Below, one piece after another: positions 15,562-47,458 of a DNA stretch of 60,059 nt (within the stretch, counting starts at the first letter, position 1; each line of letters opens with the position of its first letter). Source of the stretch: an uncultured Candidatus Saccharibacteria bacterium (GTDB taxonomy: Bacteria > Patescibacteriota > Minisyncoccia > Phycocordibacterales > DATGWK01). A program made the translations under genes and the position numbers. The notes beneath the pieces are model-generated. The model ran no database searches. It saw nothing but the letters and a program-made list of their open reading frames with translations, and had not been told where the DNA came from. The stretch spans positions 1 to 60,059 of the forward strand of contig CAYMIB010000001.1 of the NCBI GenBank assembly GCA_964390475.1, read 5' to 3'.

Positions 15562-16233
15562 ATGAAAAGAATTGAGAAGGAGAAAGCGATCAAGCTAAGA
15601 CAAAAAGGGGAATCAATTAAAACGATTGCCAAAATTTTGGCTGTTTCAAAAGCTAGTGTAAGTATGTGGGTTCGTGATGTTCAGCTTACGGCTAAGCAAC
15701 AGCAGAAATTAAAGATGAACGAGCACAGTAAGGTTGTTATTGAAAAAAGAAGGACTTCTCGTTTGAGGAATGAATTAGAGAAACGCAATTTAATAAGCAA
15801 TAGGGCAAAGGTTGATATCAAGTCTATTTCTAAAGAGGATCTAAGAGTTGTCGGGTCCATGCTTTATTGGGCTGAGGGAAGGAAAAGAGGTAGAAGAATC
15901 ATCACATTTTCTAATAGTGATCCCGAGATTATTAAAATAATGATGAAGTTTTTTAGAGAAATATGCCACGTCGACAATAAAAAATTTCGAGGCCATATTC
16001 ATACCTATTCGCATTTAAGTGTCAAAAATTCTGAGAGATATTGGTCGAACATATCCAATATCCCACTTAGTCAATTTTACAAGACATACACTAAGCCAAG
16101 TAAATCTAGTAAAAATAAGATGGATAGTTTGCCGAACGGTACGTTTGATATTTATGTGTGCGACAGTGTATTGTTCCTGACAGTGAAGGGCTGGATCGAA
16201 AAAATTTCTAGTTTGATCCTTAATGATGAATAA
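15562..16233 (+). CDS. HTH-containing protein with possible LAGLIDADG-type endonuclease-like C-terminal domain
   Basis: The N-terminus KAIKLRQKGESIKTIAKILAVSKASVSMWV is a resolvase-type HTH. LYWAEGRKRG...ITFSNSDPEIIKIMMKFF...YWSNISNIPLSQF resembles LAGLIDADG_3-type proteins. Start uncertain (GTG 15523 or ATG 15562). Confidence 0.4.
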   Translation: MKRIEKEKAIKLRQKGESIKTIAKILAVSKASVSMWVRDVQLTAKQQQKLKMNEHSKVVIEKRRTSRLRNELEKRNLISNRAKVDIKSISKEDLRVVGSMLYWAEGRKRGRRIITFSNSDPEIIKIMMKFFREICHVDNKKFRGHIHTYSHLSVKNSERYWSNISNIPLSQFYKTYTKPSKSSKNKMDSLPNGTFDIYVCDSVLFLTVKGWIEKISSLILNDE

Positions 16234-16236
16234 AAA

Positions 16237-17037
16237 ATGAACCCAGAAATCTTGTACGAAGACGAGCAATATATTATTTTCAACAAACCCGCTGGGCTTG
16301 TTGTGCATGCCGACGGGCGATCGAAAGAGGCGACGTTTGCCGACTGGCTTTTGGAAAATCGACCAGAAATGAAAGATGTGGGGGAGCCGCTTGTGATTTT
16401 GCCTGGCACAGAAAAAGAGCAGAAAATTTTGCGTCCGGGAATCGTGCACCGTCTGGACAAAGAAACTTCTGGTGCGATCGTCGTCGCCAAAACCACGGCG
16501 GCTTTCGAAGACCTTAAGGAAAAATTCCAGAACCGCGAAGTGGGGAAGAAGTATCACACATTTGTTTACGGAAATCTTTCAGAAGAAGACGGCACGATCA
16601 ATCGCCCAATCGGCCGAAGTAAAAGTGATTTCCGGAAATGGTCGGCCCAGCGTGGCGCTCGCGGTGAGATGCGTGAGGCGGTCACAAACTATCGTGTGCT
16701 GGCGCATGGCGAAATCACTGGCGTGAAATTTGATTTTGTCGAAGTAGAACCCAAAACCGGCCGGACTCATCAGATCCGTGTTCATTTTAAAGCGATCCAT
16801 CATCCAGTTATTGCTGACTCTTTATATGCAGAAAACCAAACGCCGGTGCCGGCAGATGTTGAATCAGGTTCAGGTCTCGGTCCGAACCTTGGTTTCAAAC
16901 GTCTTGCTCTTCACGCTCATGAAATTTCCTTTATGCCAAAAAGCCGCGCCAAAAATCCAAAAAAAATCACCATTCAGGCGCCATATCCGGAAGATTTTGC
17001 GATGGCGGTGAAGTTAATGGATAAAAAGACAGCTTAG
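16237..17037 (+). CDS. RluA-family pseudouridine synthase
   Basis: HRLDKETSGAIVVAKT catalytic motif and RTHQIRVH. Confidence 0.85.
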   Translation: MNPEILYEDEQYIIFNKPAGLVVHADGRSKEATFADWLLENRPEMKDVGEPLVILPGTEKEQKILRPGIVHRLDKETSGAIVVAKTTAAFEDLKEKFQNREVGKKYHTFVYGNLSEEDGTINRPIGRSKSDFRKWSAQRGARGEMREAVTNYRVLAHGEITGVKFDFVEVEPKTGRTHQIRVHFKAIHHPVIADSLYAENQTPVPADVESGSGLGPNLGFKRLALHAHEISFMPKSRAKNPKKITIQAPYPEDFAMAVKLMDKKTA

Positions 17038-17076
17038 TTGCCCTAGAACCACTCCTGTGTTACATTATCTTCCTAT

Positions 17077-17529
17077 ATGAAAGGAGCCCAAACAGCAGCC
17101 CCAAAAGAGTTCAAACTCTCAACAGTGAACACCGACGAGCGGAAAAAGCTCGATCTTCGTGCTGGTGATACGGTAAAGGTTTGGCAGAAAATTAAGGAAA
17201 AAGACAAGACTCGTCTTCAGGCTTTTGATGGTCTTGTTTTGGCTGTAAAGCATGGCGTGGAAGCTGGTGCCACTTTCACTGTTCGCAAGGTTGCGAGCGG
17301 TGTCGGTGTCGAGAAAATTTTTCCTCTCTACTCTCCAATGATCGACAAGATCGAAACCGTAAAGCGTGCAAAGGTTCGCCGCGCAAAGCTCTACCACATC
17401 CGCGACAAAGCCGCGAAAGAAGTCCGCCGTCAGATGCGAAATGTTCGGGCGGAGAAAGCTCCGGTTGCCGAAGCAGGTGAAGTGAGTGCTCCTGCTGTCG
17501 AAACTCCGAAAGCAGAAGTTGTCGCGTAA
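17077..17529 (+). CDS. rplS: Ribosomal protein L19 with terminal extensions
   Basis: GDTVKVWQKIKEKDKTRLQAFDGLVLAVKH...FTVRK...GVEKIFPLYSP. Confidence 0.9.
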   Translation: MKGAQTAAPKEFKLSTVNTDERKKLDLRAGDTVKVWQKIKEKDKTRLQAFDGLVLAVKHGVEAGATFTVRKVASGVGVEKIFPLYSPMIDKIETVKRAKVRRAKLYHIRDKAAKEVRRQMRNVRAEKAPVAEAGEVSAPAVETPKAEVVA

Positions 17530-17624
17530 TTCCTATAAAAAATTTCAAAAACAAAATTCCGCCAGTCGGCGGTTTTTTGTTCCGCTTGAATTCCCGCGTT
17601 TTTTTACATAGTATGTCCCTACAA

Positions 17625-17707
17625 GCGCGGGTGGCGAAATTGGTAGACGCACTACCTTGAGGTGGTAGCGCCCTTCGGGCTTGGAGGTTCAAATCCTCTC
17701 CCGCGCA
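17625..17707 (+). tRNA. tRNA-Leu (anticodon GAG)
   Basis: Manual fold: acceptor GCGCGGG/CCCGCGC, anticodon stem CTACC/GGTAG, loop TTGAGGT, long variable arm. Confidence 0.9.
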
Positions 17708-17730
17708 CAAGGCTTTTTATTTTAAGGCCG

Positions 17731-17811
17731 TTTATAGTGGCTAGTTAGTAAGGCGGAGTCGTGCGAACAATTTATGGGGCTGGCTAGTAAGGTGCCCCTT
17801 GAACAATTTAT
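17731..17811 (+). repeat. Two degenerate tandem units imitating the upstream region plus 5' end of tRNA-His
   Basis: TTTATaGTGGCTAGTtAGTAAGG...GAACAA | TTTATggGGCTGGCTAGTAAGG...GAACAA | TTTATgGTGGCTATAGTTTAGTGG (the real tRNA). Confidence 0.7.
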
Positions 17812-17883
17812 GGTGGCTATAGTTTAGTGGTAAAACCCAAGTTTGTGGAACTTGAGTCGAGGGTTCGATTCCCTCTAGTCACC
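17812..17883 (+). tRNA. tRNA-His (anticodon GTG) with encoded G-1
   Basis: Manual fold: G-1, acceptor GTGGCTA/TAGTCAC, anticodon stem CAAGT/ACTTG, loop TTGTGGA, discriminator C. Confidence 0.9.
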
Positions 17884-17954
17884 CAGCGTTTAAAATCTAT
17901 AAAATACCCTTGTTTTAAGGGTTGTTTTTGGTTCCACAAAACAGCTGTTTTCTG

Positions 17955-17983
17955 TTTGACATATTCACATTTACGTGATATTC
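17955..17983 (+). promoter_or_regulatory. Sigma70-type promoter TTGACA-17-TATTCT
   Basis: Canonical spacing, upstream of the two-gene orphan operon. Confidence 0.6.
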
Positions 17984-18064
17984 TTTTTAACAGAGGTAAG
18001 AATGTCTTATCTGCTCATTCACAAGGGTCCTAGAGAACCCGTTACTCCCGAAAGGAGAAATCTC

Positions 18065-18454
18065 ATGCTTACTTCTACCCAGGTGTCCCTCGTGGCCGAC
18101 TTCGAGTCCTGTATTCACAACACCAGGTGTTGGTACGGGGCGAGCGTTGACAAGGTGGTGCAAGAGACCAAGGGGAGTGATCACCCTCACTCCTTCGATG
18201 GCTACTGCATCTGCATGACGCCGGAGTGGGTGAAGGATGTTTACACCCTCCTCACATCACGCGGTATCAAGCCAGAACCATTCTTTGAATTTCTCGCAGA
18301 ACGCGAGTGGTTCAAGAAAGGCGCTGACTTTCTCAACGCGAAACGACTGAACGGGTATGGTAAGGATGATGCGGTGGAAAGAGACGATCAATATTGTCTC
18401 GAACTCCCACATCTCATCAGGCTATTCCGTGAGTTCGTTGAGCGGTCCGCGTAG
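18065..18454 (+). CDS. Hypothetical protein (orphan A, upstream of the hammerhead)
   Basis: GC-rich ORF. The ATG at 18065 is preceded by GAAAGGAGAAATCTC, nearly identical to the RBS context of orphan B. An in-frame ATG at 18002 is an alternative start. Confidence 0.5.
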   Translation: MLTSTQVSLVADFESCIHNTRCWYGASVDKVVQETKGSDHPHSFDGYCICMTPEWVKDVYTLLTSRGIKPEPFFEFLAEREWFKKGADFLNAKRLNGYGKDDAVERDDQYCLELPHLIRLFREFVERSA

Positions 18455-18564
18455 CCCAAGCGTAAGAAGGAAGTCAGCGCGAAAAAATAAGCGCAGACAA
18501 TCCTTCAGGGATGGATTCGTATATCCAAATAAAATACGAACGCAGGTAGAGCGTTTCTCTACCA

Positions 18565-18613
18565 CTGTCGGGAAGTGTGTACTTCTCCTGATGAGTCCGA
18601 AAGGACGAAACAG
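18565..18613 (+). ncRNA. Type III hammerhead ribozyme
   Basis: CUGUC^GGGAAGU-GUGU-ACUUCUC-CUGAUGA-GUCC-GAAA-GGAC-GAA-ACAG. The complete conserved core is present: CUGAUGA, GAAA and a GUC cleavage triplet. Helix I has 7 bp, helix II 4 bp with a GAAA loop, and open helix III has 4 bp. Confidence 0.85.
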
Positions 18614-18667
18614 AAGTGTTCTTTCACAAACGGTCATAGCGAACCACTTCCTGAAAGGAGAAATCGC

Positions 18668-19141
18668 ATGTTTCGGAAACTGACTACAATCATCGACAGT
18701 AAGTTGGTGAGGGAGATGGACAGGAAAGAGGGTCTTCGGTCGGGGAAAGGATTTGAGGAGTGTTTGCTCCTCGGACATCGGTTGGTTTCGGTGGCGTTTC
18801 AAGCTCCCGAAAACATCCTGAATCTTTTCTCCACGAATAACCCTCTACCTTTTGGGATGGACGGCGATCTTTATGATCGTCTACGTCATTCCCGCGAGGC
18901 ACGGGTGAGGAATCACCAAGTCGCAATTCAACAGGCAGCTCGAATCGACTCGGTTGTCAGTCTCATCGACACCAGCGACGTCTTCAGGTTGGTGATGTAC
19001 TGCTACCGGTGCGAGGAAAAGGAACCGTTCTATAGGGTTCGTTTCCACATCAACTCTAAGGGGGAATTTGTTCATGCCGATGTGGACCCTAAGGGTGATG
19101 GTCCATCCGATCCTGGTCATTTTGTTTCCAGGATTGTGTAA
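18668..19141 (+). CDS. Hypothetical protein (orphan B, downstream of the hammerhead)
   Basis: ATG preceded by GAAAGGAGAAATCGC. 157 aa, GC-rich. Confidence 0.55.
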   Translation: MFRKLTTIIDSKLVREMDRKEGLRSGKGFEECLLLGHRLVSVAFQAPENILNLFSTNNPLPFGMDGDLYDRLRHSREARVRNHQVAIQQAARIDSVVSLIDTSDVFRLVMYCYRCEEKEPFYRVRFHINSKGEFVHADVDPKGDGPSDPGHFVSRIV

Positions 19142-19149
19142 TCAATAGC

Positions 19150-19190
19150 CCCCACGAAAATCCCACGGGACGTTTCGTGGGGTTTTCTTT
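19150..19190 (+). terminator. Intrinsic terminator
   Basis: CCCCACGAAA...TTTCGTGGGG hairpin followed by TTTTCTTTT. Confidence 0.75.
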
Positions 19191-19424
19191 TATATGGTGA
19201 GTTCGTGAGTTGGGTATAATACAGGAATGTAGATAGTGGCATCGTTTTTCTGTTCAAATTTAGTTCTAACATCCTCTACTACGGCACCCTGGTTAGAATT
19301 TTTAAACAAAAGCTTTATTCAGCAAGGACTTTTTGGTTCTAGCTGTTTCGCTTTCTTGATACATTTTACTTTCTAACAAATTTTAAATACCATTGGCCCA
19401 GAACACCATAAAGGAGAAGAGAAT

Positions 19425-20024
19425 ATGAAAATTATTCTTTCAACACGTAACCCGAGTAAGTTGGAACAGATCCAGGGATTGTTTCTCGGATCACCCATCA
19501 AGGTTTTGAGTTTGGATGATGTGCGGATAACTGGTGAGGCTGTAGAAGACGGTATAACACTTGCTGAAAATGCATTCAAAAAAGCGCACTTCGCTTACGT
19601 CCAGAGTGGGTCCAAAGAGTGGGCAATGGCGGACGATACCGGCCTTCACATCGGAGCTTTGAATGGAGCGCCGGGAGTCCGAGCGGCACGCTGGGCGGGC
19701 GAGACCGCCACAACTGACGAAATTACGCAGTTTACACTCAAGCAGTTGGAAGGGAAGCTAGATCGATCTGCTGTTTTTGAAACAGTAGTCGCCGTAATCG
19801 CACCAAACGGCGAGCATCATTTTTTCAATGGAGAAGTTCATGGAACATTACTCGAAGCTCCGCGTGTCAGACCTCAGCCAAAGATGCCGTACAGTCCGAT
19901 CTTTGTGCCGGATGGAGAAAACAGGGTGTGGGCTGAGATGACTGTAGAACAAGAAAACAGCATCTCACACCGCGGTAAGGCGTTTCGGAAAGCGCGTGCG
20001 TTTTTGGAGAGTCTGATCAAGTAG
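19425..20024 (+). CDS. rdgB: Non-canonical purine NTP pyrophosphatase RdgB/HAM1
   Basis: STRNPSKLEQI, ADDTGL, GAPGVRAARWAG and SISHRGKA motifs. Confidence 0.85.
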   Translation: MKIILSTRNPSKLEQIQGLFLGSPIKVLSLDDVRITGEAVEDGITLAENAFKKAHFAYVQSGSKEWAMADDTGLHIGALNGAPGVRAARWAGETATTDEITQFTLKQLEGKLDRSAVFETVVAVIAPNGEHHFFNGEVHGTLLEAPRVRPQPKMPYSPIFVPDGENRVWAEMTVEQENSISHRGKAFRKARAFLESLIK

Positions 20025-20047
20025 TCAATGGCTCTTGTTCTCACAAG

Positions 20048-20077
20048 CCTCGGGCATCACGCTCGGGGTTTTTCTTT
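20048..20077 (+). terminator. Intrinsic terminator
   Basis: CCTCGGGCatcacGCTCGGGG followed by a T-run. Confidence 0.65.
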
Positions 20078-20108
20078 TAACGAGAAAGACTATACTTAGA
20101 GAAACGCC

Positions 20109-21197
20109 GTGCTTTCTCACTTCCACAACTTAAAAAATTGGACCGTCAAAAATGAACGCAAACTTTCGGCGCTTGCGCTTTTTGCCGGCTTTGTTTTGGA
20201 TGCGCTGACACTGCGCCGAGTAGACAATATTTACGAGAATGCTGTTTTCATATCTTATTTTTTCATCATCGGGTTTTCTATTATTGTCATTAACTACATC
20301 GAGGCGGGGAAATATGAAAGGGAATGGGTTGGTCGCACACATCCTTTTTTGCTCCTCCTTATTCAGTTTGCGTTCGGTGGTCTGTTTAGCGGCTTTTCGA
20401 TTTTTTATTTTCGCAGTGGGTCGCTGTTGTCGAGCTGGCCATTCATTCTGATTCTAGTTGTGTTGCTTGTTGGGAATGAATCTTTGCGTAAGCAGTACGA
20501 GCGTTTGGTTTTTCAAGTTTCATTTTTGTTTGTCGCCTTGTTTTTCTTCACGATTTTCGCTGTGCCGGTGGCACTTGGTCATATGGGTGCGGCCATTTTC
20601 GTTTTGAGTGGGGCAGTTGCTCTTGTATTAGTTGCAGGTTTTGTGTATCTACTGTGGCGAATTGTACCCGAGCGGGTAGCGAAGAGTCGACGGCGTCTGA
20701 TTTATTCCATCACCACCATTCTTCTTTTGGTCAACGCCCTTTATTTCACCAACCTCATTCCGCCCATTCCGCTTTCTTTGAAACAGGCGGGTGTTTATCA
20801 TTCAATCGTACGCGCTGGGGGTGAATATGTTGCAAAAGAAGAAAAACAATCTGGTCTTTCGACTCTGCAAATTTTTGAGAACATTCACGTGAAAAAAGGT
20901 GAGCCGATTTATGTGTACAGTGCGGTTTTTGCGCCTGACAACATCAGCACCACCGTCGTGCACAACTGGCGGCGTTTTGATCCCGAAACTAGTCGCTGGA
21001 TTTCTGTCAGTCGAATTCCATATATCGTCATTGGCGGAGTCGATCGGGGTTACCGCGGCTATACCAAAAAGTCGAATCTTGAGGAAGGTCGGTGGACCGT
21101 AAACATTGAGACCGACCGAGAGCAAGTCATCGGCCGAGTCACTTTTGAAGTAATGTATGACGACGAAATTTATCAGCTTGTAGAGAAGGCTCTTTAG
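20109..21197 (+). CDS. Membrane protein with C-terminal DUF2914-like domain
   Basis: GTG start, multiple TM helices. The C-terminal block VVHNWRRFDPETSRWISVSRIPY...GYRGYTKK...GRWTVNIE matches the DUF2914 pattern. Confidence 0.5.
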   Translation: MLSHFHNLKNWTVKNERKLSALALFAGFVLDALTLRRVDNIYENAVFISYFFIIGFSIIVINYIEAGKYEREWVGRTHPFLLLLIQFAFGGLFSGFSIFYFRSGSLLSSWPFILILVVLLVGNESLRKQYERLVFQVSFLFVALFFFTIFAVPVALGHMGAAIFVLSGAVALVLVAGFVYLLWRIVPERVAKSRRRLIYSITTILLLVNALYFTNLIPPIPLSLKQAGVYHSIVRAGGEYVAKEEKQSGLSTLQIFENIHVKKGEPIYVYSAVFAPDNISTTVVHNWRRFDPETSRWISVSRIPYIVIGGVDRGYRGYTKKSNLEEGRWTVNIETDREQVIGRVTFEVMYDDEIYQLVEKAL

Positions 21198-21249
21198 GGT
21201 GTACTCTTATTTCAATATGAAAGTGCAAGAGAAGATGTAAATATATTTT

Positions 21250-22371
21250 ATGTCCAGATCAATAAAAAATATGCTGGAGTCCGCTGATATCAAAATAAAC
21301 GGTGATCGACCTTGGGATATTCAAATTTTAGACAAGAGAGTATACAGGGCCGTCGCTCTCCGTGGGCTCATGGGCTTAGGCGACGCATATGTTAAAGGTT
21401 GGTGGGAATGCAAAGAACTCGATACTTTTTTCTATAAGGCATTTACCGCAAATCTTCAGGAGAAACTCAGATTCGACGTCGTAAATATTGGTGAGTACGT
21501 TAAGCAGAAACTTTTTAATCTTCAAAGTAAATCAAGAGCTTTCATTGTTGGGCAAGAACACTATGACTTGGGCAATGATCTATATGAAGCAATGCTCGAC
21601 AAAAGAATGGTTTATACCTGCGGATATTGGAAAGACGCAAGAACACTTGATGAAGCTCAAGAGGCAAAATTAGACCTCACCTGTAGGAAACTTAATCTTA
21701 AACCTGGTCAGAAAGTTCTTGATATTGGCTGTGGATGGGGAAGCTTTGCGAAATTTGCCGCAGAAAAGTATGGTGCGCATGTTGTCGGCGTTACTGTTTC
21801 AAAAGAGCAAGTTGAGCTAGCTCAAGAGCGATGCAAAGGTCTTCCTGTCGAAATTCGTTTGCAAGATTACCGAGATGTTAATGAGAAATTTGACCACATT
21901 GTTTCGTTGGGAATGTTTGAGCACGTCGGTTACAAAAATTACCGAGAATATTTTGAAGTTGCGTATCGGTGTCTTAGAGATGATGGAACTTTCTTGCTTC
22001 ATACCATGGGTCAACGCGATGACTATCCAAATACTCACCAGCCAGAAACACATTGGATAATCAAACACATATTTCCAAACGGCATGCTTCCTTCGGTTAG
22101 TCAGATCGGCAAAGCGTCGGAAAAACTTTTCGTTATGGAGGATTGGCATACTTTTGGGAAGGATTACGATCGAACCATGATGGAATGGTTTAAGAATTTT
22201 GATAAAAATTGGCCAAAACTTCAGCAAAAATATGGCGACCGATTTTACAGAATGTGGAAATACTATCTCATGACATTTTGTGGTGCGTGGCGTGCTCACG
22301 GGCAATATAATTTGTGGCAAATTGTGTTCACGAAACCAAACAGAGAAGGGAGGTATCAATCAGTAAGGTAA
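21250..22371 (+). CDS. cfa: Cyclopropane-fatty-acyl-phospholipid synthase
   Basis: VLDIGCGWGSFAKFAAEKYGAHVVGVTVSKEQ and HYDLGNDLYEAMLD are family hallmarks. Confidence 0.85.
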   Translation: MSRSIKNMLESADIKINGDRPWDIQILDKRVYRAVALRGLMGLGDAYVKGWWECKELDTFFYKAFTANLQEKLRFDVVNIGEYVKQKLFNLQSKSRAFIVGQEHYDLGNDLYEAMLDKRMVYTCGYWKDARTLDEAQEAKLDLTCRKLNLKPGQKVLDIGCGWGSFAKFAAEKYGAHVVGVTVSKEQVELAQERCKGLPVEIRLQDYRDVNEKFDHIVSLGMFEHVGYKNYREYFEVAYRCLRDDGTFLLHTMGQRDDYPNTHQPETHWIIKHIFPNGMLPSVSQIGKASEKLFVMEDWHTFGKDYDRTMMEWFKNFDKNWPKLQQKYGDRFYRMWKYYLMTFCGAWRAHGQYNLWQIVFTKPNREGRYQSVR

Positions 22372-43846: not shown

Positions 43847-46800
43847 ATGGCTGATATCCATAACAAAACTCCAAAAACCGCCGGCTTGAAAGCTGATGGT
43901 TCGCAGAAAAGCCCTGCAAAAAGCCCGGTCGCGCTTGCCGAAGAAAAAACTCTCCAATTTTGGCGCGAAAAGCAGATTTTTAAAAAGACTCTTGAAAAAC
44001 CGTCGCCGGGCGGGAATTTTATTTTTTACGACGGTCCGCCGTTTGCAACCGGTTTGCCTCACTATGGCCACATTTTAGTAAGCACCATTAAAGACGCTGT
44101 GCCACGATATCAAACGATGCGCGGCAAGCATGTTGAGCGCCGTTGGGGTTGGGACTGCCATGGTTTGCCGATCGAAAACATTGTTGAAAAAGACCTTAAG
44201 GTTTCTGGGAAAAAAGAAATCGAAGAGCTTGGTATTGATCGTTTTAACGAATACGCTCGAAGCAAAGTTTTAGATTTTGCTGATCATTGGCGCGATACTG
44301 TGGAACGTATCGGCCGCTGGGTGGACTATGACGGTGCCTACATGACGATGGATAACACATTCATCGAATCTGTTTGGTGGGCGCTCAAAGGCATTTGGGA
44401 TAAAAATTTAATTTACGAAGGCACAAAAGTTTTGCCGTACTGCCCGCGTTGCGAAACCCCAATCGCGAATTCCGAAATTGCGATGGACGGGTCGTATAAA
44501 GACATTACAGATATTTCGGTGTATGTAAAACTGGCTGTCGAAAACGAGCCGCGAACATTTTTGATCGTCTGGACGACAACTCCGTGGACATTGCCAGGCA
44601 ATACTGCCGCTGCAGTGAACCCCGACCTAGACTACGTCATCGTTAAGATCGGTGGAGAAAATGGCGACTATTACATCGTTGCGAAAGACAAAACAGGAAT
44701 TTTCAAAGAAAAATTTGAGCTGGTCGAAGAAATAAAAGGCAGCGCGCTGGTTGGTAAAAAATTCAAGCCGCCGTTTGATTATTTCACAGGGGACACATTT
44801 GCTGACGGTAAACCAAACAATCTTCCAAACCGCGAAAACGCTTGGAAGGTCTACGCCGCGCCGTACGTTACCGCCGAGGCTGGTTCGGGTATCGTCCATC
44901 TCGCACCCGCATATGGTGAAGAAGACATGGCGCTTGCCAAGGAGCACAATATTCCGTTTATTCGCCACGTTGGCCACGACGGAAAATTCACGGCCGAAGT
45001 CACTGATTTTGCTGGTGTAAAAGCTAAACCGAAAGAAGATCATCAGTCAGGTGATGTTTTGATAATTAAAAATCTAGCGGCTCGGGGCTTGCTTTTTGCA
45101 AAAGAAAAAATCGTTCACTCATACCCGCATTGTTATCGTTGCGAAACCCCTCTTTACTATTTTGCTTTGCCAGCTTGGTTTATAAAAATCGCTACTGAAA
45201 CTGAAAATGGAAAAGCTGTCAAAAAAGATCTCCTAAAAAATAATGAAGACATAAACTGGGTGCCGGAGCATTTGAAACACGGCCGGTTCGGAAAAAGTGT
45301 TGAGGGTGCACCGGATTGGAATATTTCTCGAAACCGTTACTGGGCTTCGCCTTTGCCTTTTTGGAAGTGTCAGAAATGTGAAAAAGCGGTGTGTGTTGGT
45401 TCACAAGATGATCTAGCAAAACACGCACCAGCAAAAAATAAATATTTTCTGATGCGCCACGGCGAGTCGGAGTTTAACCTCGTCAACAAAATCAGCAGTA
45501 CGCCGAATGACAAAAACCACATAACAGAAAAGGGTAGGACCGAGGCTGTTGCGGCCGCAACATTACTAAAGAAAGACGGTGTTGATTTGATTTACGCTTC
45601 TGATCTAGTTCGAGCGAAAGAAACCGCAGAGATTGTTGCCAAGGAAATCGGTTTGCCGATTGAAAGCATTATTTACGCGCCAGAAATCCGCGAGCTAAAT
45701 GCTGGTACATATAATGGCAAAACCTGGGATGAATACCGGGCAACCTTCACCTCGGTTGCCGACCGTTTCGAAGCCGAGCATGTTACCGAGGACGGGGAGT
45801 CTCTTCTAGATGTTCGGGATCGGGCAACAAAATTCATTTATGATCTAGAAAAGAAACACGCCGGTAAAAAAATTCTCATCGTCAGCCACGGCGATACGAT
45901 TTTCTTTATGCAAAAAGGTGTGAAGGGTCTGACCAAAAAAGAACTCGTCAAAGCTTTCGAGATCAAAAATGGAATGATTCCAACCGGCACATATGAAGAG
46001 CTCGATTTCTCACCGATTCCTCACAATAAAAATTTCGAACTTGATTTTCATCGACCATATATTGATGAAATAACTTTTGCCTGCGCGTGCGGTGGTGTGA
46101 TGCATCGAATTCCAGAAGTCATCGACTGCTGGTTTGAGTCTGGTTCAATGCCTTTTGCTCAAAATCATTATCCTTTTGAAAACAAGGAAAAATTTGAGAA
46201 AAATTTCCCCGGTGATTTTATTTCAGAATACATCGCTCAAACTAGGACTTGGTTCTACTACATGCATGTAGTTTCGACAATTCTTTTTGGAAAAGCAGCG
46301 TTTAAACACGTTTTGACGACCGGTACGGTTTTGGCCGAGGACGGCGAAAAGATGTCGAAATCCAAAGGTAATTTTCCAGACCCAGCGATTATTTTCGACA
46401 AATTTGGCGTTGATGCACTTCGTTTCTACTTACTCGGTTCCACTCTTCTTAAATCCGAGGATTTAAACTTTTCGGAAAAAGGCGTCGACGAAGTTTATAA
46501 AAAAATAATTTTGCGGCTGAAAAACGTTGCTTCTTTTTATGAAACTTACGCTGCCGGTGAAGAAGTAGTTACAGGTACGATCGCTACAACCGTCAGTGCA
46601 CCTGACTCGAAAAATATTCTCGATCGATGGATAGTGGAGAGGATCAACATTGTTGTGGCTGAGGTTACTTCATCTATGGAGGCTTACAAAATTGACCAAG
46701 CTCTTTCTCAGATTGATGGTTTCATCGAAGATCTTTCGGTTTGGTTTTTGCGTCGTTCACGCGAACGTCTGAAAAGTGACGACAAAGTGACCCGCGAAGA

Positions 46801-47458
46801 AGCTTTGAAAACTTTCCGTGCAATTTTGTTCAAACTTTCGAAAACAATGGCGCCGTTTACACCATTTATCGCTGAAGAAATTTATCGCACAGTGAATGGT
46901 GAAAAAGAGAGCGTGCATTTGGAAGAATGGCCAACATCCTGGGTTACGCCTGTTGAGGACATGGCGCTCATTTCCGATATGCTCGAAACCCGCCGCGTGG
47001 TCAGTCTTGCTCTGGAGGCCAGGGCCAAAGCTGGTATCAAGGTTCGTCAACCACTTCAAAACCTCGTTGTGAAGTCTACTGTGCTTCAAGGTAAGCAGGG
47101 TTGCATTGATCTCATTGCTGATGAAACGAATATCAAAGAAATTTTATTTGATGCTGAAATTGTGGATGAGGTAGTGCTCGATACAGAAATCACTCTCGAT
47201 TTGCGCGAAGAGGGAAGTCTGCGAGAACTAATCCGATTCGTTCAGGAGCTTCGTAAAAAAGCCGGCCTCAAGCCTGGTGATCTGACGACACTTTTAGTCG
47301 AAGCTGATGCCGATGGTCGGGAATTCGTTAAGAGGTTTGAGGAGGTGATTAAAAAATCGGCTCTGCTTTCTGCTATTTCAATTGTGAAGGACGTCGACGA
47401 CGGTGAAAAAATCGAAATTGATAATGCGAAGTTTAATTTGAGAATCGGAAATAATTAG
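43847..47458 (+). CDS. ileS: Isoleucyl-tRNA synthetase (type 2) with an inserted histidine-phosphatase (PGM-family) domain
   Basis: PPFATGLPHYGHIL (HIGH), KMSKS and a CP1/editing region. The insertion is at about 45440-46005 and carries RHGESEFN, DLVRAKETA, IRELNAG and VSHGDTI. Confidence 0.9.
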   Translation: MADIHNKTPKTAGLKADGSQKSPAKSPVALAEEKTLQFWREKQIFKKTLEKPSPGGNFIFYDGPPFATGLPHYGHILVSTIKDAVPRYQTMRGKHVERRWGWDCHGLPIENIVEKDLKVSGKKEIEELGIDRFNEYARSKVLDFADHWRDTVERIGRWVDYDGAYMTMDNTFIESVWWALKGIWDKNLIYEGTKVLPYCPRCETPIANSEIAMDGSYKDITDISVYVKLAVENEPRTFLIVWTTTPWTLPGNTAAAVNPDLDYVIVKIGGENGDYYIVAKDKTGIFKEKFELVEEIKGSALVGKKFKPPFDYFTGDTFADGKPNNLPNRENAWKVYAAPYVTAEAGSGIVHLAPAYGEEDMALAKEHNIPFIRHVGHDGKFTAEVTDFAGVKAKPKEDHQSGDVLIIKNLAARGLLFAKEKIVHSYPHCYRCETPLYYFALPAWFIKIATETENGKAVKKDLLKNNEDINWVPEHLKHGRFGKSVEGAPDWNISRNRYWASPLPFWKCQKCEKAVCVGSQDDLAKHAPAKNKYFLMRHGESEFNLVNKISSTPNDKNHITEKGRTEAVAAATLLKKDGVDLIYASDLVRAKETAEIVAKEIGLPIESIIYAPEIRELNAGTYNGKTWDEYRATFTSVADRFEAEHVTEDGESLLDVRDRATKFIYDLEKKHAGKKILIVSHGDTIFFMQKGVKGLTKKELVKAFEIKNGMIPTGTYEELDFSPIPHNKNFELDFHRPYIDEITFACACGGVMHRIPEVIDCWFESGSMPFAQNHYPFENKEKFEKNFPGDFISEYIAQTRTWFYYMHVVSTILFGKAAFKHVLTTGTVLAEDGEKMSKSKGNFPDPAIIFDKFGVDALRFYLLGSTLLKSEDLNFSEKGVDEVYKKIILRLKNVASFYETYAAGEEVVTGTIATTVSAPDSKNILDRWIVERINIVVAEVTSSMEAYKIDQALSQIDGFIEDLSVWFLRRSRERLKSDDKVTREEALKTFRAILFKLSKTMAPFTPFIAEEIYRTVNGEKESVHLEEWPTSWVTPVEDMALISDMLETRRVVSLALEARAKAGIKVRQPLQNLVVKSTVLQGKQGCIDLIADETNIKEILFDAEIVDEVVLDTEITLDLREEGSLRELIRFVQELRKKAGLKPGDLTTLLVEADADGREFVKRFEEVIKKSALLSAISIVKDVDDGEKIEIDNAKFNLRIGNN

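Follow-up and report, generated by a model that had tools for sequence, protein, structure and literature searches.

Why would a bacterial chromosome carry what appears to be a complete hammerhead ribozyme in the spacer between two protein-coding genes? The question is raised by a stretch of DNA of 60,059 nucleotides (nt) from an uncultured Candidatus Saccharibacteria bacterium (GenBank assembly GCA_964390475.1, contig CAYMIB010000001.1, positions 1 to 60,059; the whole stretch is hereafter the window), in which a first-pass annotation, made from the letters alone, had placed a type III hammerhead between two open reading frames (ORFs) of the forward strand. These are ORF1 (18065-18454; 129 amino acids, aa), which occupies a position where genes vary between related loci, and ORF2 (18668-19141; 157 aa), the gene that stays constant in the cassette and whose N-terminus, MFRKLTT, never varies; the spacer between them measures 213 nt (18455-18667), as annotated. 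Our analysis suggests that the motif is probably a catalytically competent hammerhead residing within a single ORF1-ORF2 mRNA, where constitutive cleavage between the cistrons would uncouple ORF2 from the variable upstream gene.

A complete type III hammerhead within a proposed single transcription unit

The putative ribozyme spans 18565-18613 on the forward strand, and direct reading shows every base and position that the first-pass annotation gave for the 18545-18625 region to be correct. The element opens with CUGUC (18565-18569), that is, the 5′ strand of helix III, of which CUGU (18565-68) pairs with ACAG (18610-13), followed by the cleavage nucleotide. Helix I (GGGAAGU, 18570-76, with ACUUCUC, 18581-87) comprises 7 base pairs (bp), including G18571-U18586, and carries the loop GUGU (18577-80); the core sequence CUGAUGA occupies 18588-94; helix II (GUCC, 18595-98, with GGAC, 18603-06) is capped by GAAA (18599-602); and GAA (18607-09) leads into the closing ACAG. 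The core nucleotides claimed to be invariant align with the consensus, C3 U4 G5 A6 N7 G8 A9 being 18588-94 and G12 A13 A14 being 18607-09, A18610 pairs with U18568, and H17 is C18569, giving a GUC triplet with a predicted cut between C18569 and G18570. With the core-closing pairs 10.1-11.1 (G18595-C18606) and 1.1-2.1 (G18570-C18587) also present, the window copy has the complete set of defining pairs (C3-A9, G12-A14, A15.1-U16.1, G10.1-C11.1, and N1.1-N2.1) plus C17. Helices I and II are closed by loops and helix III, only 4 bp long, is open, an arrangement supported by covariation. A 7-bp hairpin detected by folding (18545-18563; GGUAGAG, 18545-51, with CUCUACC, 18557-63), which shows compensated changes in relatives, abuts helix III.

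The assignment to type III thus draws on the sequence itself, on covariance models, and on compensatory changes in related loci. When hits are reported by E-value, the Rfam model Hammerhead_3 (RF00008) aligns end to end (model positions 1-54) with 18562-18616, scoring 43.9 bits with an E-value of 1.1e-8 over 261 nt, or about 2.5e-6 when scaled to the whole window; the default Rfam scan of the window returned 5 tRNAs and no ribozyme. A covariance model (R2) built exclusively from 60 copies in viral contigs assigned the site 71.1 bits, the sole match in the window, and a structural descriptor of type III hammerheads likewise found this site only. The same descriptor matched none of 300 random windows of identical size and dinucleotide make-up, searched on both strands, in agreement with the original assertion that such a motif is unlikely to arise by chance.

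The hammerhead lies between two genes of the same strand, with the predicted transcription signals found only outside the spacer. The only sigma-70-like site upstream of ORF1 (17956-17984, forward strand) consists of TTGACA, a 17-nt spacer, and TG-n-TATTCT, with 10 of 12 matches and an extended -10 element, and is a consensus match only; the only forward-strand terminator-like site past ORF1 is a hairpin of 14 pairs with a U tract (19156-19195, with the site itself at 19156-19187). No promoter-like or terminator-like site was detected in the spacer (18455-18667). Thus, the proposal that the two genes share a promoter and a terminator, originally put at 17955-17983 and 19150-19190, is plausible, as is a single dicistronic ORF1-ORF2 transcript, and because these sites bracket the genes and none falls between them, a dicistronic transcript cut at 18569/18570 is the natural reading. 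The predicted cut would leave ORF2 with a leader of 98 nt (18570-18667), the length given at the outset. Among the related loci introduced below, TTGAC(A/T) with a -10 element occurs at the equivalent relative position in L001, L128, L129, and L135, and a similar hairpin follows ORF2 in L001, L128, and L131.

Relatives of the element in phage genomes

The 26-mer CUGAUGAGUCCGAAAGGACGAAACAG is present in 8 IMG/VR viral contigs, and a looser class pattern, CTGTC-N16-22-CTGATGAG-N10-16-CGAAACAG, matched at least 120 viral stretches; the matches listed, taken over all loci, include 102 distinct variants. Most, not all, of the listed variants follow a common build, in which a hairpin is followed after 0-2 nt by CUGUC and a 6-7-bp helix I with a loop of the UGUGUG or GUGU type, and then by CUGAUGAG, a 4-bp helix II with an NAAA loop (AAAA or GAAA), and CGAAACAG. 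The search pattern partly imposes the core and leaves helices I and II free. Among the matches listed, 63 distinct 49-nt copies have these two helices paired in 99.6% of cells, with 249 double-change cells, distributed over 9 pairs, compared with 70.7 ± 10.2 in shuffles, and only 35-48% pairing in register-shifted control helices. Furthermore, at least 90% of the copies share U12, G13, and U16 in loop I and AAA and G in loop II; the window copy has every one of these nucleotides, which would represent the expected signature of a tertiary contact between loops I and II, the kind of contact that permits fast cleavage at physiological Mg2+.

The hairpin preceding helix III is similarly a property of the class. 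Among the 108 distinct viral copies listed, the 32 nt upstream of the element have a mean folding energy of -12.2 kcal/mol, compared with -1.9 for the downstream 32 nt and -4.3 for shuffled upstream sequences, and in 82 of these copies a hairpin ends 0-2 nt ahead of CUGUC. The phage copies lie a median of 33 nt past a same-strand stop codon and a median of 30 nt before the next same-strand ORF and are therefore intercistronic; several phage contigs among the matches listed contain 2-3 copies each. When RF00008 was applied to 8 phage loci, all 13 type III matches scored between 36.2 and 48.3 bits, that is, under the curated gathering score of 48.5, so that the phage class is systematically missed at this threshold. 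Thus, the RF00008 cut-off is too strict for the phage class, a limit of the training set, and is no evidence against the window copy.

In some phage copies, the upstream hairpin resembles a tRNA T-arm (GGGUUCAAACCC); a link to tRNAs was rejected given that ARAGORN finds no tRNA there. One phage contig with a hammerhead of this class (L006, 3733-3765) also contains a DUF805b RNA scoring 42.7 bits, above its cut-off, and another (L007, 3101-3150) a type I hammerhead-like match of 31.9 bits, compared with a cut-off of 34. Among named phages, blastn with the motif retrieved only Xanthomonas phage RiverRider, through a 25-nt core match. An unannotated intergenic stretch of this phage just upstream of a tRNA cluster (MG983743.2, ~17799-17840; L144, 1485-1526) reads CUGAUGAGUCC-GUUA-GGACGAAAC; it was rejected as a member of the class, scoring 20 bits with the class model, and is probably a hammerhead of another topology.

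A conserved gene with exchangeable partners

For comparison, we fetched loci (designated by L numbers) of the ORF2 family, which is very small (11 protein clusters, all with the N-terminus MFRKLTT), the cassette being rare. These loci fall into 4 groups. In L128 and L135, ORF2 is preceded only by a promoter and the leader described in the next section, with no ribozyme; L141, for which 16 nt of upstream sequence containing a first-position ribosome-binding site (RBS) block are available, probably belongs here as well. The window, L001, L131, and L143 have two genes and a hammerhead with a perfect core, and their upstream genes are unrelated except for those of the window and L143; indeed, the L143 protein (P0013, 63% identity) is the sole relative of ORF1 that we found. 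In this canonical group, helix I, helix III, and the abutting hairpin vary by compensated substitutions, with ORF2 identity down to ~30%. The third group (L133, 3533-3581; L136, 2898-2946; L142, 115-163), spread over 3 ORF2 protein clusters, retains the three helices, with compensation, around a variant core that reads CCGAUGA (U4C) and has an A-A mismatch at 10.1/11.1, helix III being CCGU/ACGG; the upstream gene encodes 177-178 aa (cut by the contig end in L142). The variant represents either a tolerated change of the core or a structure that outlived catalysis. Finally, L129/L130 and L140 have an upstream gene (128 aa in L129) and keep the hairpins and the leader, the hammerhead being reduced to GUC, part of helix I, and the GUGU loop.

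The abutting hairpin is UACAGAG/CUCUGUA in L001, GCAGAC/GUCUGC in L143, and AGGGAGU/ACUCCCU in L136, all compensated, and across the cassette family compensated changes affect 8 of 15 pairs, including one helix III pair that changes from U-A to C-G or U-G. The suggested examination of related genomes for conservation thus yielded a divided answer: the four loci with the most similar spacers keep the perfect core and compensated helices, whereas in other loci the element is mutated or decayed. Of the distinct loci in which a gene precedes ORF2, all 9 have a hammerhead or its remnant; neither of the single-gene loci with readable upstream sequence (L128 and L135) has one. The upstream genes in L001, L129, L131, and L133/L136 are unrelated to ORF1 of the window. 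Across these loci, ORF2 is the constant member of the cassette, and its upstream partner is exchanged from one locus to the next. The 177-178-aa upstream genes (L133, 2959-3495; L136, 2326-2859) resemble region 4 of ECF sigma factors only weakly, the match falling below threshold (E-value 0.002-0.004).

Duplication of the leader

Leader A, upstream of ORF1 (18025-18067), comprises a box hairpin (GGGUCCUAGAGAACCC), a Shine-Dalgarno mini-hairpin, and an RBS block (GAAAGGAGAAAUCUCAUG). Leader B of ORF2 (18614-18670), a copy of leader A, comprises UUCACAA, the box GGUCAUAGCGAACC (18632-45), and the RBS block GAAAGGAGAAAUCGCAUG (18653-70). Once the 49-nt hammerhead is removed, leader B aligns with the promoter-proximal 5′ untranslated region (5′UTR) all the way from the abutting hairpin through the ORF2 start codon. 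The counterpart of the abutting hairpin is 5′UTR hairpin 1 (GGUAAGA/UCUUAUC, 17995-18011), located about 4 nt past the inferred transcription start; in the alignment, its position in L001, L128, and L129 is occupied by other, self-complementary sequences. The order common to both leaders is hairpin 1, UUCACAA, the box hairpin, the Shine-Dalgarno hairpin, and GAAAGGAGAAAUC(U/G)CAUG, where the box hairpin conforms to GG(G)YC(C/A)UAG(A/C)GARCC, with an invariant loop, and the mini-hairpin to CUCC-CGAAA-GGAG. First-position genes always start with ...UCUCAUG and second-position genes with ...UCGCAUG. From this alignment, the leader is duplicated, with the hammerhead inserted in the ORF2 copy.

The box and the RBS block occur at two places only in the window (18025-18067 and 18632-18670) and, among 143 fetched loci, are confined to the cassette family. 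Two metagenome scans with conserved leader patterns gave 0 matches each, and a genome scan with the 5′UTR pattern gave a single match, in one Candidatus Taylorbacteria metagenome-assembled genome (MAG). The leader has the look of a regulatory site to which a protein or an RNA might bind.

A further part of the spacer (18466-18540) is structured and conserved, with compensated pairs identified by RNAalifold on four loci. An outer stem (GAAGGA, 18466-71, with UCCUUC, 18501-06) encloses an inner hairpin (18473-80 with 18491-98) and is followed by a hairpin, UUCGUAU (18516-22) with AUACGAA (18534-40); all three stems covary between loci. In L001, the outer stem runs into the end of the coding sequence upstream. 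The 3′ strand of helix I (UUCUCC, 18583-18588) is complementary to the ORF2 Shine-Dalgarno sequence (GGAGAA, 18657-18662), with one mismatch in L001, which may be a coincidence.

Genomic setting

The window is bacterial chromosome, encoding SHMT, Arg-, Ile-, Pro-type, and Met-tRNA synthetases, an M16 peptidase, and PilM, and the gene order around the site is rplS, tRNA-Leu, tRNA-His, the cassette, Ham1, DUF2914, and cyclopropane-fatty-acid synthase. We infer that the host replicon is a chromosome of Patescibacteria (Candidate Phyla Radiation, CPR) because the Candidatus Taylorbacteria MAG, the closest named relative that we found, encodes a Met-tRNA synthetase (MetRS) 59% identical to that of the window and has the M16 peptidase, permease, and MetRS order in common with it. 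With neighbors that are housekeeping genes, no integrase near the site, and no phage-genome match to 16000-22000 by megablast, the locus does not present as a phage or prophage. Four of the proteins were tested against PHROG; neither ORF1 nor ORF2 had a match, and only rplS did, to a family without known function.

The assessment of both genes as being of unknown function stands, in that neither matches Pfam, PHROG, or PADLOC; an AlphaFold model of ORF2 (pLDDT 71) has no match at an E-value of 0.001 or lower in the PDB or BFVD libraries. Their description as GC-rich is only partly true, the GC content being 0.53 for ORF1 and 0.50 for ORF2, both above the 0.445 of the window; at third codon positions (GC3), the values are 0.65 and 0.56, respectively, compared with ~0.45-0.50 in housekeeping genes. 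Gene callers place the start of ORF1 either at ATG 18002 (150 aa, in L002/L003) or at ATG 18065 (129 aa, in L004), and we favor 18065, which agrees with the position of the conserved leader and with the length of the L143 homolog (129 aa).

Integration at tRNA-His was considered and rejected, as the 3′ end of this tRNA does not recur as a direct repeat flanking the cassette. An AT-rich inverted repeat (17888-17902 and 19293-19307) that brackets the cassette is weak (15 nt, 80% complementary) and is probably due to chance. Contamination with an engineered ribozyme such as RiboJ was also dismissed, given that helix I and the loops differ from those of RiboJ and that the locus is found in four assembled contigs from other samples (L002-L005) as well as in diverged relatives. 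Elsewhere in the window (43847-47458), an isoleucyl-tRNA-synthetase-like ORF of 1203 aa contains a His_Phos_1 domain (residues 534-708) placed between its catalytic and anticodon-binding parts.

Discussion

Taken together, the sequence of the element, its fit to the phage class, covariation, the duplication of the leader, and the co-occurrence of ribozyme and upstream gene point to an intercistronic hammerhead that probably cleaves constitutively. We propose that one mRNA would extend from the promoter at ~17956-17984 through ORF1, the hammerhead, and ORF2 to the terminator at 19156-19195, and that this RNA would cut itself after C18569. The upstream product, encoding ORF1, would end with the 18545-63 hairpin followed by ACUGUC bearing a 2′,3′-cyclic phosphate; the downstream product, encoding ORF2, would begin with a 5′-OH at G18570, flush with the helix I hairpin, and continue with the helix II hairpin and the leader copy. 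Because a hairpin starts both the primary transcript (about 4 nt in) and the cut ORF2 RNA (flush with its end), the ribozyme can be viewed as an insulator that would stand in for a promoter, providing ORF2 with the same structured, standard 5′ end whichever gene lies upstream, and the cut would separate the fates of the two cistrons. Conservation across the class suggests that the short helix III of 4 bp would let the products part and that the abutting hairpin might stack on helix III or shield the new 3′ end.

Several observations weigh against this proposal. In nearest-neighbor folding, which ignores tertiary contacts, the hammerhead fold (-23.8 kcal/mol) lies 3.5 kcal/mol above the minimum-energy structure (-27.3 kcal/mol), and the probability of helix III is below 0.01, because the CUG of the core can pair with the CAG of ACAG (probability ~0.5). 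The RF00008 score, one of the checks named in the first-pass annotation, is 4.6 bits short of the curated gathering score (43.9 against 48.5 bits), so that by Rfam's own standard the window copy is not a member of the family. The core is mutated in L133, L136, and L142 and lost in L129/L130 and L140; therefore, catalysis is dispensable in some lineages. A simple unmasking of the RBS by cleavage is not supported as the benefit, the predicted accessibility of the Shine-Dalgarno sequence being 0.43-0.45 in the uncleaved and 0.28 in the cleaved RNA; going by these predictions, a benefit, if there is one, would more likely concern RNA stability or uncoupling. Furthermore, ORF1 and ORF2 have no assigned function to which a benefit of uncoupling could be tied.

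Could the ribozyme be real but cleave only under certain conditions, so that the ratio of ORF1 to ORF2 would be tuned by a competing pairing, by the hairpins further upstream in the spacer, or by a protein binding the conserved leader box? The pairing of CUG (18588-90) with CAG (18611-13) dominates the predicted ensemble, ~100 nt of covarying structure precede the ribozyme in the subfamily of the window, a conserved box hairpin with an invariant loop stands ahead of each gene, and regulated cleavage has been raised for phage hammerheads by Perreault et al. (PMC3088659). However, the CUG/CAG competitor is inherent to any helix III ending in ACAG and hence occurs in every retrieved copy, which does not mark a designed switch; Rfam scans found no ligand-binding or aptamer-like element; and the extra spacer hairpins are missing in L136, L142, and the phage copies, so that we consider conditional cleavage unlikely. 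Marginally less probable still is that the hammerhead shape is retained as structure, namely, an mRNA-stabilizing or protein-binding three-way junction, rather than as an enzyme, the perfect core in the window being recently inherited and of no further importance. L133, L136, and L142 keep the three helices, with compensation, despite U4C and the A-A mismatch, and L129 and L140 lost the core and retained the neighboring hairpins and leader, both of which speak for such a role. By contrast, the invariant core is intact in the window, L001, L131, and L143 while the flanking proteins differ by 37-70% or are unrelated, the loop nucleotides that typically form the rate-enhancing tertiary contact are conserved although the search did not impose them, and some natural core variants still cleave (PMC3088659); the invariance of the phage cores carries no weight here, being partly imposed by the search pattern.

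That upstream genes are unrelated between loci with conserved flanks, that ORF1 and ORF2 types are recombined (the ORF1 type of the window stands beside a P0006-like ORF2 in L143), that a 25-nt RBS block (repeat D3, shared by leaders A and B) is present at both ends of the inserted unit, and that the GC3 of ORF1 is atypical might all suggest that the ribozyme serves the mobility of the cassette, the variable gene, spacer, and hammerhead being moved as RNA, circularized or reverse-transcribed, in the manner of retrozymes. Yet a cassette with a single hammerhead cannot release a unit-length RNA, neither the cassette nor its immediate surroundings encode a reverse transcriptase, integrase, or transposase, and the shuffling is accounted for by homologous recombination between the conserved leaders, with no RNA step needed; thus, we regard this scenario as quite improbable. 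As for a chance match in an intergenic spacer, to which only the shortfall against the Rfam gathering threshold lends any color, it is hardly credible and is refuted by the E-value of 1.1e-8, the absence of matches in 300 random windows, the 71 bits obtained with the phage-only model, and the compensated conservation in other loci.

For comparison with known systems, we folded the sequence of a satellite type III hammerhead. It has the identical core, the same helix II (GUCC/GGAC), the same helix III (CUGU/ACAG), the GUC triplet, and an open helix III. Unlike the satellite ribozyme, the window copy is encoded by DNA within a bacterial mRNA rather than by a circular RNA replicon, has a helix III of only 4 bp, loops GUGU and GAAA, and a hairpin abutting helix III.

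Closer counterparts are the hammerheads of phages and prophages, which border individual genes or small groups of variable genes and commonly have a weak stem III (Perreault et al. 2011, PMC3088659); when clustered, such ribozymes cut ~2-kb polycistronic prophage RNAs in vitro (PMC3088659). The novelty of the locus was therefore overrated in the first-pass annotation, given that gene-flanking hammerheads in polycistronic phage and prophage RNAs have been known since 2011 (PMC3088659). The modules described by Perreault et al. resemble that of the window in being intercistronic, on the coding strand, associated with variable genes mostly of no known function, and proposed to process polycistronic RNA; the window copy differs in being chromosomal rather than in a prophage, single rather than clustered, and located inside a duplicated leader. 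As far as can be read from the sequence, the element is a phage-type hammerhead of type III lying between cistrons. RiboJ, an engineered insulator composed of a satellite hammerhead and a hairpin, standardizes leaders and raises expression (PMC6206723). By analogy, the ORF2 leader would work in the same way, a type III hammerhead ahead of the RBS stripping the upstream RNA and leaving a fixed, hairpin-bearing 5′ end. However, RiboJ is synthetic and its hairpin lies downstream of the ribozyme, in contrast to the upstream hairpin of the window; the likeness is functional and not by descent.

Thousands of genome-encoded hammerheads are known, and their roles in bacteria and phages are largely unsettled (PMC6765202). 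Against this background, the locus described here offers a bona fide-looking chromosomal copy outside a prophage, in Patescibacteria. It also exposes an annotation gap, in that a large class of phage hammerheads, characterized by a 4-bp helix III with a hairpin next to it and by conserved GUGU/NAAA loops, falls under the Rfam cut-off and is unannotated. Finally, one resident gene is observed in four states, either without an upstream gene and ribozyme or with an upstream gene and a perfect, core-mutated, or decayed ribozyme, so that the idea of an intercistronic insulator becomes directly testable. More speculatively, the hammerhead-bearing spacer could act as an expression adaptor that is portable and needs no promoter, in effect a natural ribozyme insulator allowing the locus to tolerate the turnover of gene cassettes, although we consider this broader interpretation doubtful. 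In these ultra-small bacteria, new genes would slot ahead of the conserved gene by recombination at the repeated leader, and the ribozyme would give the resident gene back a standard mRNA of its own. If this is true, lineages in which the core is mutated or decayed would serve as natural knock-outs for the function of a bacterial hammerhead.

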